Assembly (NCBI GenBank): GCA_963842525.1
Contig: CAWJGT010000009.1
Location: forward strand, 992,001 to 1,056,000
DNA length: 64,000 nucleotides
DNA from: an uncultured Holophagales bacterium
Lineage (GTDB): Bacteria; Acidobacteriota; Thermoanaerobaculia; Multivoradales; UBA5704
Reading direction: 5' to 3'
The notes below the pieces were generated by a model, which did no database searches, was not told the DNA's origin, and worked only from the letters and a program-made list of their open reading frames with translations. Shown here piece by piece: positions 3,720 through 9,805 of the stretch (its first letter is position 1; every line of letters starts with the position of its first letter). The position numbers and the translations under genes were made by a program.

Positions 3720-4937
3720 CTATTTATGGCTGTCAAGTGAAGCACCGCATCGCTCCCGCAGCCCCGCCAGCGCCGGCAGCGCCTCCAGGATCGACTGCGT
3801 GTCCGCCCCGAAGTCGATCAGGCAGGCGGCCTCGTCGGCGCCGATGGCGCGCAGGCGGTCGATCATCTGGGCGCATTTGTCCGGATGGCCGAGGAGCGAC
3901 AGGCTGGCGTAATAGTTCTCGAACGCCACGCCCAGCACCGTGTCCACGTCCTCCCGTCGCACCTCTCCTGTTGCTCCTCCGGCGAGGAAGCTGTACTGGT
4001 CGAGATAGGTGCGCAGGTAGGCGATCATCGGGGCGCGGACCTTCTCGCGCACGGCGTTCTCGTCGTCTCCCACATAGGTGTGGAGCATCACCGCGACCTG
4101 TCCGGCTTCGGGGTCCAGGCCCGCCGCGGCGCGGGCTGCGCGGTAGCGGGCGATCTGCGCGGCGAGCACCGGCAGCGGCTGCACGATGGTGAGGACATGG
4201 GCGCCGATGGCGCCAGCCCGGTCCCAGGTCGCCGGGCTCGTCGAGGCGGTCACCCAGAACGGCAGCTCCGCCTGCACCGGCCGCGGCAGCACCCGCACGT
4301 CGATCTCGCGGCCGTCCACACCGGTCTGGCGGACGGCCTCGCCGCGCCAGAGCCGGCGGATGGTCTCGATCCCCTCGAACATCCGCTCCTTGCGGTCCGC
4401 GAACGCCTCCGGATTGAGGGCGAAATCGGTGGGGTGCCATCCCGAGGCGAAGGAGACTCCGGCGCGGCCGTGCGAGATGTTGTCCACCACGGCCCACTCC
4501 TCGGCCACCCGCAGGGGATTGTGCAGGGGGAGGACGACGCTGCCGGCGCGGATGCCGATGTGCTGCGTCATGGCGGCGAGATGGGCACCGAGCACCGAGG
4601 GGTTGGGGTAGAAGCCGCCGAACTGGCCGAAGTGCCGCTCCGGGGTCCAGACCGCGTCGAAGCCGTGCTCGTCGCCAAAGCGCGCGGTCGCCAGGAGCAG
4701 CTCGTAGCTTTCGGCAGGGGTCTTCGATTCCCCCTCGGAAAAGAAGAACAGGCTGAAGCGGATCGGCCGGTCGGAGCCTGCGGGCTCGGCGAGGCCGGGC
4801 GCCGGTGGGGAAGGCTGTGGAGCCGTCCCTGCCGGCGGGACGACGGCGTCAAGCCCTTTCTTCTTGAGCCGCCGGAGGAGGAGCTCGCGCTGCTCGGGGC
4901 TCAGGCCGGCCAGGCGCTTGGAGAGGTCATCCGCCAT
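3720..4937 (-). CDS. Luciferase-like flavin monooxygenase (natural-product MupA/Atu3671 type) with docking-like N-terminus
   Basis: [48 protein letters not shown]-term MADDLSKRLAGLSPEQRELLLRRL; overlaps the PKS stop. Confidence 0.9.
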   Translation of the reverse strand: MADDLSKRLAGLSPEQRELLLRRLKKKGLDAVVPPAGTAPQPSPPAPGLAEPAGSDRPIRFSLFFFSEGESKTPAESYELLLATARFGDEHGFDAVWTPERHFGQFGGFYPNPSVLGAHLAAMTQHIGIRAGSVVLPLHNPLRVAEEWAVVDNISHGRAGVSFASGWHPTDFALNPEAFADRKERMFEGIETIRRLWRGEAVRQTGVDGREIDVRVLPRPVQAELPFWVTASTSPATWDRAGAIGAHVLTIVQPLPVLAAQIARYRAARAAAGLDPEAGQVAVMLHTYVGDDENAVREKVRAPMIAYLRTYLDQYSFLAGGATGEVRREDVDTVLGVAFENYYASLSLLGHPDKCAQMIDRLRAIGADEAACLIDFGADTQSILEALPALAGLRERCGASLDSHK

Positions 4938-7900: not shown

Positions 7901-9805
7901 GACATCCAGAGCCGGGCGAGCGCGTATTCGACGACGAAGAGCGCCGGCTGGGTCAGCTCCGTCCGTTCCAGCCGCTGTGCCGCCGACTCCCGGTCCGCAG
8001 AGGGATAGAGCACCTCCCGCAGGTCGAGGCCGAGATGCGGCCGAAGGATCTCCGCGCAGCGGTCGACCTCAGCGCGGAAGACCGCCTCGCCCCGGTAGAG
8101 CTCCAGCGCCATGTCCGGATGCTGCGATCCCTGGCCCGGGAAGAGAAAGACGACCGGCCGCTCGTGGTCGCCTGCCGCCGCCGTCGCCGTCCGCGCCGGA
8201 TCGAGCGAGCGCAGAGCGGCCACGACCTCGGCGGCATCGCGGCCGACCACGATCTGCCGGTGCGGAAATGAGCGCCGTCCCGTCTGCAGGGTCCAGGCAA
8301 TATCCGCGAGAGTGCTTTCCCCCCTCTCCCGGGGGGTTGGGAGTGAGGATGGGAGAGGGGGGCTAGGGGGGTGAGGGTCCAAAAACGCCGCCAGATTCGC
8401 CGTCATCGCCTCCAGCGCCGCCGAAGTCTTCGCGGACAGTGGGAGCACCTGCCACGGCCGCGAGGCTCCCAACGGTGCGGAGGGCGCGGGAGCCTCCTCC
8501 AGCACCACATGCGCATTGCTGCCGCCGACCCCGAACGAGCTCACACCGGCCCGCCGCGGCCCACCGCCTTCCGGCCACTCGCGGAGCCTGGTGTTGACGA
8601 AGAACGGGCTTACCGCGAAATCGATCTCCGGATTGGGCTTTTCGAAGCCGAGGCTCGGAGGGATCAGCCCGTTCTCCAGGGAGAGCACCGCTTTGATCAA
8701 CCCGGCGACGCCGGCCGCGGCGTCCAGATGGCCGATGTTGGTCTTGACCGACCCCAGGGCGCAGAACCCCCGGCGCGCTGCTCCCCGGGAGCGGAAGGCG
8801 CGGGTCAGCGCGGCCACCTCGATCGGATCGCCCAGGCGGGTGCCCGTGCCGTGGGCCTCCACATAGCCGATCGTCTCGGGCTCCACCCCGGCGACCCCCA
8901 GGGCTTCGGCGATCACCTCGGCCTGGCTGTCCAGGCTGGGTGCGGTATAACCGACCTTGCCGGAGCCGTCGTTGTTGGTGGCCGAGCCGCGGATCACCGC
9001 GCGGATGCGGTCGCCGTCCCGCAGAGCGTCGGCGAGCCGCTTCAGGGCCACGATCCCCACGCCGTCGCCGAGCACCGTGCCGCGCGCCTCGGCGTCGAAA
9101 GCACGGCAGTGGCCGTCCGGCGAGTAGATGCTCCCCTCCTGGTAGAAATAGCCGACCTTCTGCGGCAGATTGACCCCGACCCCGCCGGCCAGGGCCATGT
9201 CGCACTCGCCGTCGAGCAGCCCCTGGCACGCCACATGGACGGCCACCAGAGACGTCGAGCAGGCGGTCTGCACCGCGAAGCTCGGCCCCCGCAGGTTGAG
9301 GCGGTAGGAAACCTGGGTGGTGAGGAAGTCCTTGTCGACGCTGATCCGCCCCTGGATGCCGCCGACCGACATCATCAGGTCGTGGTTGGACAGCAGGTTG
9401 TAGAGCAGATACGAGCTCAGGTTGGCGCCGCCGTAAACGCCAATCCGGCCGGCGAAGCGCTCCGGGTCGCAACCCGCGCCCTCCAGGGCCTCCCAGGCGC
9501 ACTCCAGGAACAGCCGGTGCTGCGGGTCCATGAGCGCCGCCTCGCGCGGCGTCAGGCCGAAGAAGGATGCGTCGAACAGCTCGATCCTCTCCAGGTACGG
9601 CTTGGCGCGCACATACGCGGGGTCTCGCCATACCGTCTCTGGGACGCCGGAGGCTGCGAGCTCCTCGTCGCTGAAGAAGGTGATGGACTCGACGCCGTCG
9701 CGCAGGTTCTCCCAGAACCGCTCGAGGCTGGGAGCGCCGGGGAAGCGGCCCGCCATGCCGACGATGGCGATCGCGTTGGGATAAAGGTCGTTCGAACTCG
9801 CTCAT
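4927..9805 (-). CDS. Type I PKS module KS-AT(malonyl)-KR(inactive)-ACP; +1 frameshift near 9795
   Basis: TACSTS, HGTGT, NIGH; AT GHSVG and HAFH; KR GQVDFCAAN (Tyr replaced by Phe); ACP AGNSL. True start ATG 9805 (GGGAG RBS) is one base out of frame with DLYPNAIAIVGMAGRFPG. Confidence 0.92.
6590..6736. repeat. Family A palindromic element (full, 147 bp), in-frame in the PKS KR structural region
   Basis: CCCTCACCCC..CCTCTCCCATCCGCACTCCC...GGGAGTGCGGATGGGAGAGGGG..GGGGTGAGGG; translated SPHPRPLSHPHSQPPGEG...GVRMGEGGQGGEG. Confidence 0.9.
8319..8377. repeat. Family A palindromic element (half), in-frame in the KS-AT linker
   Basis: CCCCCCTCTCCCGG..GGGAGTGAGGATGGGAGAGGGGGGCTAGGGGGGTGAGGG; translated PHPPSPPLPSSLPTPRERGE. 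Confidence 0.88.

Follow-up and report, generated by a model that had tools for sequence, protein, structure and literature searches.

We describe a polyketide synthase (PKS) gene and the oxygenase gene that overlaps its end in the genome (about 9.95 Mb) of an uncultured Holophagales bacterium of the Acidobacteriota (GenBank assembly GCA_963842525.1). The stretch analysed, called the window throughout, comprises 64,000 nucleotides (nt) of contig CAWJGT010000009.1 (C9 below; positions 992,001 to 1,056,000), and plain coordinates are counted from its first letter. The oxygenase is a luciferase-like monooxygenase (LLM), and both genes belong to an assembly line that otherwise consists largely of nonribosomal peptide synthetases (NRPSs). 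We find that this LLM is most likely an in-line docked tailoring enzyme and not the last step of the line, which does not lack a thioesterase (TE). Close homologues bear source names that point to Thermoanaerobaculia within the Acidobacteriota, and not to a myxobacterium, which had been considered first. The parts of the two genes are as follows.

3720..4937, minus strand: stand-alone FMN-dependent LLM of the MupA/Atu3671 family (TIGR04020), 405 amino acids (aa)
4764..4853, minus strand: proline-rich linker from head to TIM barrel, LLM aa 29-58 (aa 27-58 in the structure model), modelled with low confidence (pLDDT about 50)
4854..4937, minus strand: basic two-helix head of the LLM, aa 1-28; helices 2-10 and 14-26 in the AlphaFold2 (AF2) model; signature residues L9, L12, L20 and R23
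4930..5061, minus strand: acidic two-helix C-terminal tail of the PKS, aa 1566-1609; signature residues E1583, I1584, L1587, L1592 and L1596
4927..9805, minus strand: single-module cis-AT PKS gene, KS-AT-KR0-ACP-tail by Pfam scan; the continuous frame is 4927-9801
5071..5253, minus strand: acyl carrier (ACP) domain, PF00550 at 62.8 bits, and modelled
5557..6153, minus strand: ketoreductase (KR) domain, catalytically dead, with Tyr replaced by Phe at aa 1370 and a degenerate NADPH motif
7249..8151, minus strand: acyltransferase (AT) domain, PF00698 at 186 bits
8644..9801, minus strand: ketosynthase (KS) domain, PF00109 at 229 bits and PF02801 at 146 bits

In the PKS protein, Pfam places the KS at aa 1-371, the AT at 536-836, the KR at 1202-1400 and the ACP at 1502-1562. 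The KS keeps TACSTS, EAHGTGT and NIGHL, which we take to be its Cys, His and His motifs, and the AT contains GHSVGE together with HAFH, presumably the malonyl-type combination. The catalytic Tyr of the KR is F1370 (GQVDFCAAN, aligned with GQADYAAAN in the PksJ KR, 4J1Q) and the glycine-rich NADPH motif has decayed to ITGGLDLTS, in agreement with a preliminary description of this DNA that had labelled the domain KR0. With the KS and AT motifs intact and the KR dead, the ACP should carry an unreduced, unbranched β-ketoacyl chain.

The LLM scores 448.7 bits against TIGR04020 (cut-off 244.45), its residues 61-393 covering model positions 1-340 of 341. Its ATG sits 11 nt inside the PKS frame (ATGGCGGATGA), which is the gene overlap described earlier. 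The AF2 model (pLDDT 87.7) forms a TIM barrel from aa 60, and Foldseek ranks 6KET, the Ox domain of PuwE, first (TM 0.90), followed by bacterial luciferases. By sequence, 6KET is also the closest solved structure (E 8.9e-108, 48% identity). The window genome holds seven LLM domains above the TIGR04020 cut-off, six of which lie inside frames of 917-4664 codons; only the one at 3720-4937 stands alone. With the LLM that the last in-window NRPS module carries inside its A domain, it shares 50% identity.

The PKS continues for 45 residues beyond its ACP, ending in AEVDHILDEIEGLSPAELERLLAEEMELEEGAHGG. In an AF2 model of its last 130 residues (pLDDT 85), the final ACP helix extends to ..EIE, turns at GLS and gives way to a second helix, so that the acidic, docking-like tail of the preliminary description is recovered as two helices. 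The LLM opens with MADDLSKRLAGLSPEQRELLLRRLKKKG, and this head is present on 119 of the 120 stand-alone homologues listed (alignment A2), the remaining one being N-terminally partial. Within that alignment, R8 and L12 are invariant, and L9, R17, L19, L20, R23, L24 and G28 are at least 90% conserved. The resemblance seen earlier to two NRPS N-termini also stands: those at 32609 and 46568 have GTG starts and are head-like, the latter containing ISALNPTHRALLEVL. Indeed, heads of the LLM type begin NRPS1, NRPS3, a stand-alone condensation (C) domain protein and a TE-bearing NRPS (NRPS-TE) of the same line.

These features correspond to a known class of helical docking domain. C-terminal docking domains (CDDs) of the type 2, type 2-related and PAX 3HBa groups are described as two helices with hydrophobic residues at i, i+3, i+8 and i+12 and an acidic residue at i-1; the N-terminal docking domain (NDD), a V of two helices, carries aliphatic residues at j, j+3 and j+11 and a basic residue at j+14 that pairs with the CDD acid (PMC11221535). 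The same source gives these patterns for CurG/H, Bam_5925/5924 and PaxB/C. The tail presents E1583 (i-1), I1584, L1587, L1592 and L1596 at the CDD positions, and the head presents L9, L12, L20 and R23 (the basic j+14) at those of the NDD. The NDD pattern also fits the C protein (I8, L11, L19, R22) and the NRPS-TE (I7, L10, L18, R21). Across the 17 sequences of tail alignment A1 the acidic E is invariant, the next position is I or V in 17/17, and L1587 and L1596 are each kept in 16/17; position i+8 is aliphatic in nine, Ala in seven and a gap in one. Further, the best Foldseek match of the ACP-tail model is 7B2B, the PaxA T1-CDD/PaxB NDD structure (E 1.6e-6, 99 columns). Head and tail are most likely a type 2-related α-helical docking pair, filed as such by signature and predicted fold and not by homology statistics, since sequence searches gave nothing significant. 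A complex prediction of the tail (47 aa, 16 rows) with the head (45 aa, 119 rows), run without controls, scored 0.30 and 0.28 against a mark of 0.32. In the only seven pairs available for comparison, the NRPS head had a mean identity of 0.56 to the LLM head of its own locus and 0.48 to those of other loci, with the own-locus head ranking first in four of seven. At 15 carrier-to-C junctions of the window genome the N-termini look head-like by eye; a pattern-based tally of heads and tails proved too strict to use. Within the line, the window offers an internal example of a tail followed by a head.

32526..32935, minus strand: NRPS2-NRPS3 junction, where the NRPS2 tail (three SPEEVERMLAEL copies) is followed by the NRPS3 head

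In NRPS2, the C-terminal tail (32738-32935, minus strand) repeats (A/T)SPEEVERMLAEL three times in tandem, giving the second docking helix in triplicate. Elsewhere in the window genome, a stand-alone thioesterase (G000:C34:521313-522350, minus strand; 2313-3350 of locus L124) that matches PF00975 at 103.7 bits has an N-terminal extension of about 70 aa with the head-like motif LESLSAAKRKLLAKRIRGE. Its sequence suggests that the head may also tag other free-standing enzymes.

The arrangement in the window is one copy of a conserved three-part cassette, consisting of a KS-AT-(dead KR)-ACP-tail protein, a head-LLM and a head-NRPS. In a survey of the 80 best loci, with one genome per species, 18 have an LLM match that includes the head. 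They come from Acidobacteriota, Eisenbacteria, Gemmatimonadota, Streptomyces, Micromonospora, Actinocrinis, Tumebacillus, Parvularcula and a gammaproteobacterium. A large open reading frame (ORF) ending in a carrier domain lies directly upstream in all 18: a PKS ending in ACP and tail in 16, and an NRPS of C-A-PCP type in the other two. Of the 16 PKSs, 15 have a KR match (12 are KS-AT-KR-ACP, two are seen only as AT-KR-ACP, one has a partial KR and one is without a KR match). All 16 PKS tails share the pattern ..LLxE(I/V)ExLS... The next gene encodes a head followed by a C domain (NRPS) in 14 of the 18 loci. Among 13 downstream ORFs scanned, which left out L043 (the same locus as G001, analysed separately) and four near-duplicate Streptomyces loci, four are C-A-PCP, three C-A-PCP-TE and two longer NRPSs; the others are two cut C-A fragments, one A-PCP in a broken frame and one haem-oxygenase-like protein. 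A compact form of the cluster, from Streptomyces (L085), has the order C / A-PCP / KS-AT-KR0-ACP / LLM / C-A-PCP-TE. The KR could be aligned in 15 copies of the cassette. Its NADPH motif is degenerate in every one, the Tyr column holds F in two (the window genome and G001), N in eight and Y in five, and the Lys column holds K in four and R in 11.

Natural variants of the cassette bear on what the head does. At L068 (Thermoanaerobaculia) and L084, a single protein contains KS-AT-ACP, an in-line tail, a Pro/Ala-rich linker and an LLM barrel without a head, and the ORF that comes next encodes an NRPS with a head. The head is thus present where the LLM is a separate protein beside the tail and lost where the LLM is fused and the tail kept. 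Tethering of the LLM to the tail by its head is supported chiefly by this comparison. Since the fused forms keep both the tail and a head-bearing NRPS as next gene, the tail would also serve the downstream NRPS. We have weighed whether the head might instead be a dimerisation helix, or bind elsewhere on the synthase, in which case the LLM would, like MupA, recognise its ACP by the carrier domain alone. MupA functions without a known docking domain, going by the available text of PMC10952193, and NRPS1, the first protein of the line, has a head with no upstream partner nearby. Set against this are the near-universal occurrence of the head on stand-alone homologues and its absence from both tail-bearing fused forms, and the signature residues of a characterised docking class on both head and tail. 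Moreover, an acidic-tailed carrier lies upstream at every head-bearing locus (18/18), compared with 0/2 countable loci for head-less stand-alone LLMs (L063 and L079; L060 is cut by a contig end). We judge a non-docking head to be quite unlikely. Other architectures were also met in the survey: L080 and L081 encode ..DH-ACP-LLM fusions with a different linker and are, like L068 and L084, Acidobacteriota forms, and L090 and L118, from cyanobacteria and Dictyobacter, encode head-less LLM-DH-KR-ACP proteins.

The position of the LLM within the line becomes clear from comparison with a genome of the same genus, G001. On one 12.2-kb contig and one strand, G001 carries the end of an NRPS with an embedded LLM, the PKS, the LLM (76% identical to that of the window), a C-domain protein and an NRPS. 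The ATG of the stand-alone C-domain protein overlaps the LLM stop, and the following NRPS runs off the contig. In the window genome the order and strand of these genes are the same, and two blocks of other DNA separate them. By blastn, the G001 locus matches C9 at 1018306-1016908 (NRPS end), 1001780-995742 (PKS and LLM), 951802-950351 (C protein) and 950135-946636 (NRPS). The corresponding features of the window are these.

24892..30141, minus strand: end of the upstream NRPS, PCP-C-A with embedded LLM-PCP, whose G001 orthologue directly precedes the PKS
9781..24907, no strand: 15.1-kb block (blastn), not in the G001 locus, separating this NRPS from the PKS
1..3741, no strand: in-window end of a 43.9-kb block (C9 951803-995741), not in G001, separating the LLM from the C protein and NRPS-TE

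Because the blocks sit at intergenic junctions, the C protein and NRPS-TE of the window genome now lie 44 kb from the LLM. Both are on the same contig and strand. The C protein bears a head, and the NRPS is A-PCP-C-A-PCP-TE, its TE matching PF00975 (Thioesterase) at 96 bits; the NRPS-TE head contains MSVSEKINKLSAEQRALLRSRLQRK, and this head-bearing N-terminus is in a different frame from the remainder. Upstream, the G001 orthologue of the embedded-LLM NRPS passes straight to the KS of the PKS, so that two LLM-type oxygenases act at consecutive modules. In this last in-window NRPS module the same-family LLM occupies aa 1007-1310, inside the A domain, and the module has no TE.

The preliminary description had taken the line to be TE-less and the LLM to be a terminal pseudo-module that offloads the chain oxidatively. 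Its observation on the window was sound, for none of the 35 window ORFs scanned against Pfam contains a TE or terminal reductase family, and unrelated DNA does follow the LLM in the window genome. In its favour, too, LLMs of the same family occur embedded in terminal, amide-forming modules (MtaG and MelG). However, the G001 genes for PKS, LLM, C protein and NRPS form one contiguous block, their C protein and TE-bearing NRPS orthologues with matching heads lie downstream in the window genome itself, and a head-bearing NRPS follows the LLM in 14 of the 18 head-LLM loci. A TE-containing module with a suitable docking domain elsewhere in the genome is what the preliminary description had itself named as speaking against its reading. 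Further, neither MupA nor the Ox domain of PuwE releases chains, as far as the available portions of PMC10952193 and PMC4219810 go. The idea of a TE-less line with oxidative release was accordingly rejected, and we regard terminal release by the LLM as highly improbable. What endures of the earlier proposal is the attachment of the LLM to the PKS through head and tail, and its action on a ketone left by a dead KR, each on indirect evidence; its terminal position and the release of the chain do not.

We think it probable, from the sequences, that the LLM is docked head to tail and α-hydroxylates the β-ketoacyl-ACP in line, before the chain passes to the head-bearing NRPS. The KS and AT would lengthen the incoming chain by a malonate unit, and the dead KR would leave the product as a β-ketoacyl-S-ACP. 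The basic two-helix head of the LLM would bind the acidic two-helix tail of the ACP and so keep the enzyme at its substrate. There the FMN-dependent LLM would hydroxylate the α carbon of the ACP-bound chain, in the manner of MupA and PuwE Ox, and the resulting 2-hydroxy-3-oxoacyl chain would move to the downstream C domain, whose N-terminal head of the same type would use the same tail. We infer the α-hydroxylation by analogy. MupA α-hydroxylates an ACP-bound β-ketoacyl chain and accepts neither the β-hydroxy analogue nor a free pantetheine substrate; it is a dimer, and OocM and CalD are cited as relatives linked to α-hydroxylation (all as given in the available text of PMC10952193). In PuwE, a PKS module that only elongates is followed by an aminotransferase domain, a monooxygenase domain and an NRPS module, and the outcome is a 3-amino-2-hydroxy acyl unit (PMC4219810).

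The same docked, in-line enzyme might perform other chemistry, such as a Baeyer-Villiger insertion beside the β-ketone, a double oxidation to a 2,3-dioxo chain or an oxidative C-C cleavage. The LLM fold covers type II Baeyer-Villiger monooxygenases, with 4UWM and 5AEC among the fold matches; the conserved dead KR shows only that a ketone is wanted; and α-hydroxy-β-keto thioesters are unstable (PMC10952193). Yet the LLM is only 18-19% identical to the two Baeyer-Villiger enzymes, compared with its 48% identity to 6KET, and its nearest characterised relatives (MupA, OocM, CalD and PuwE Ox) are all tied to α-hydroxylation in the accounts cited above. Such alternative chemistry therefore seems unlikely.

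Several observations weigh against docked α-hydroxylation as we have set it out. The relatives on which the chemistry is modelled are at most 48% identical to the LLM, the fold includes Baeyer-Villiger oxygenases (4UWM is a match), and the window revealed no flavin reductase gene. Tyr survives in five of the 15 KRs that could be aligned, so the dead KR is no universal feature of the cassette. At two of the 18 loci the head-LLM comes after an NRPS C-A-PCP, whose acidic tail departs from the PKS-tail pattern. Against solved structures, the single tail sequence matched only 6TDN, insignificantly (E 0.24), the single head sequence matched nothing significantly, and tail and head profiles matched designed helical proteins and no docking domain. 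Finally, the 5′ end of the PKS and other genes of the line are frameshifted, so the cassette may not work in the window genome.

Two known systems come close to the proposed arrangement. Like the LLM of the window, MupA of the mupirocin pathway belongs to TIGR04020, stands alone and needs a carrier-bound β-ketone (PMC10952193). The trans-AT α-hydroxylation bimodules of MupA, OocM and CalD differ from the cassette, in which the PKS is cis-AT and the KR is dead rather than acting after hydroxylation; moreover, the next step for the window LLM is the C domain of an NRPS and not KS0-ACP. The LLM also has an N-terminal docking head, while the MupA bimodule junctions have neither of the two trans-AT docking motifs looked for, within the available part of PMC10952193. 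A trans-AT bimodule of the MmpD/MmpA-MupA type was thus rejected for this locus, given the cis AT, the dead KR and a next module that starts with a C domain. The Ox domain of PuwE is placed after a PKS module that only elongates and before an NRPS module, and it accounts for a 2-hydroxy group (PMC4219810), as we propose for the LLM. PuwE, however, is one polypeptide that includes an aminotransferase, whereas the oxygenase of the window is encoded by its own gene and would be joined to the PKS through head and tail; the scanned window ORFs gave no match to an aminotransferase family. On those two grounds an in-cis PKS-AmT-Ox-NRPS arrangement of the PuwE type was also rejected; the cassette looks like a split PuwE-like arrangement that lacks the aminotransferase and has a dead KR.

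A third relative is found in MtaG and MelG, where an LLM (MOX) lies within the A domain of terminal, amide-forming modules. There the LLM acts on an aminoacyl-PCP, and it is of the same family as the stand-alone LLM of the window. A module of the MtaG/MelG type, with the 50% identical LLM noted above, lies just upstream of the PKS.

As for the docking elements, the CurG/CurH, Bam_5925/Bam_5924 (6TDN), PaxB/PaxC (6TRP) and PaxA/PaxB (7B2B) pairs share the two-helix CDD and NDD signatures, and the tail core, EIEGL, recurs letter for letter in the Bam_5925 stretch opposite it in the insignificant 6TDN match (E 0.24). Unlike in these pairs, the NDD of the cassette belongs to a tailoring oxygenase, and a single tail seems to serve the heads of the LLM, the C protein and the NRPS. 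Docked oxidoreductases may already have been noted, since a review mentions PAX-type docking domains predicted on 'oxidoreductase domains' and cites Watzel 2020 for this (PMC9113145, in the portion available). A full-text literature search returned no paper on a docked LLM of a PKS and no LLM among docked trans-acting tailoring enzymes, nothing on docking domains of nonribosomal peptide assembly in Acidobacteria or on Atu3671, and nothing relevant on a myxoprincomide monooxygenase. What appears to be new is the proposed joining of a MupA-type α-hydroxylase to a type 2-related docking pair, both of known kinds, in a cassette that is widespread.

We speculate further, and more doubtfully, that a single ACP tail is a shared landing pad, on which the heads of the LLM and of the downstream C-domain proteins, all with the signature L..L........L..R, bind the type 2-related tail of a dimeric PKS in turn or together. 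Such a docking code, in place of gene fusion or recognition of the carrier, would programme on-line α-hydroxylation in cis-AT PKS-NRPS lines of at least six phyla, with the same head tagging other free-standing enzymes such as the stand-alone thioesterase noted above.

How a trans-acting oxygenase reaches the correct carrier in time is a standing question, and PMC10952193 asks how the components of the MupA bimodule are coordinated. The cassette offers a natural system with an explicit, short and portable recruitment device (a 28-residue head and a 45-residue tail), and its fused and split versions allow comparison. If binding of head to tail is real, engineers could add α-hydroxylation to a chosen PKS module. 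Likewise, if our reading holds, one could predict a 2-hydroxy-3-oxo unit in what many uncharacterised clusters of Acidobacteriota, Streptomyces and other groups make. For the window genome itself, the analysis corrects the TE-less reading and indicates that the line may be inactive.

Whether this particular copy still works is a separate matter. The ATG at 9805, which has a Shine-Dalgarno-like GGGAG, and the KS lie in different reading frames, there being four extra nt between the conserved PKS ATG and the KS frame relative to the G001 orthologue. Frames are also broken at the NRPS1/NRPS2 junction and at the start of the NRPS-TE (C9, about 949.5 kb), and the NRPS3a/3b junction needs three frames; within the window the break sites are at about 9760-9805, 29955-30363 and 42950-43330. 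These breaks hint at possible pseudogenisation of the megasynthases, and the window copy is split and possibly inactive.

The cassette here could thus be a decaying remnant, with two insertions and frameshifts, whose PKS-LLM pair makes nothing. The 15.1-kb and 43.9-kb blocks lie exactly at two intergenic junctions relative to G001. Other megasynthase and megasynthetase frames in the assembly are unbroken up to 10975 codons, so random assembly indels are rare and the breaks in this line are unlikely to be assembly noise. On the other hand, the PKS and LLM frames are otherwise intact (1625 and 405 codons), separately transcribed genes could still cooperate through docking, and the frameshifts rest on the assembly, for which the only run listed, a soil metagenome, holds 0.05 of the sampled words, and no RNA run that holds them was listed. 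We lean towards a copy that is not simply a remnant, while giving decay appreciable weight.

The two blocks carry varied genes. In the 15.1-kb block these are DinB, a DEAD-box helicase, a DprA-like gene, a PIN/DUF6364 pair, a GMC oxidoreductase, a lanthipeptide pair, CorA and Uma2. The PIN_3 toxin-like gene and the DUF6364 gene that precedes it (13790-14521, minus strand) are probably a toxin-antitoxin pair, and the DEAD-box helicase and DprA-like genes adjoin them. The in-window end of the 43.9-kb block contains a sigma-54 activator (604-1647) and a PIN gene (2193-2696). The rest of that block (C9, about 953-992 kb) holds many large minus-strand ORFs, some of them phage-tail-like or contractile-injection-system-like by eye only. 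The lanthipeptide genes (16672-20191, minus strand) form a class II pair, in which a precursor of the mersacidin/lichenicidin family (TIGR03898, 52.8 bits) overlaps a LanM synthetase (DUF4135 and LANC_like).

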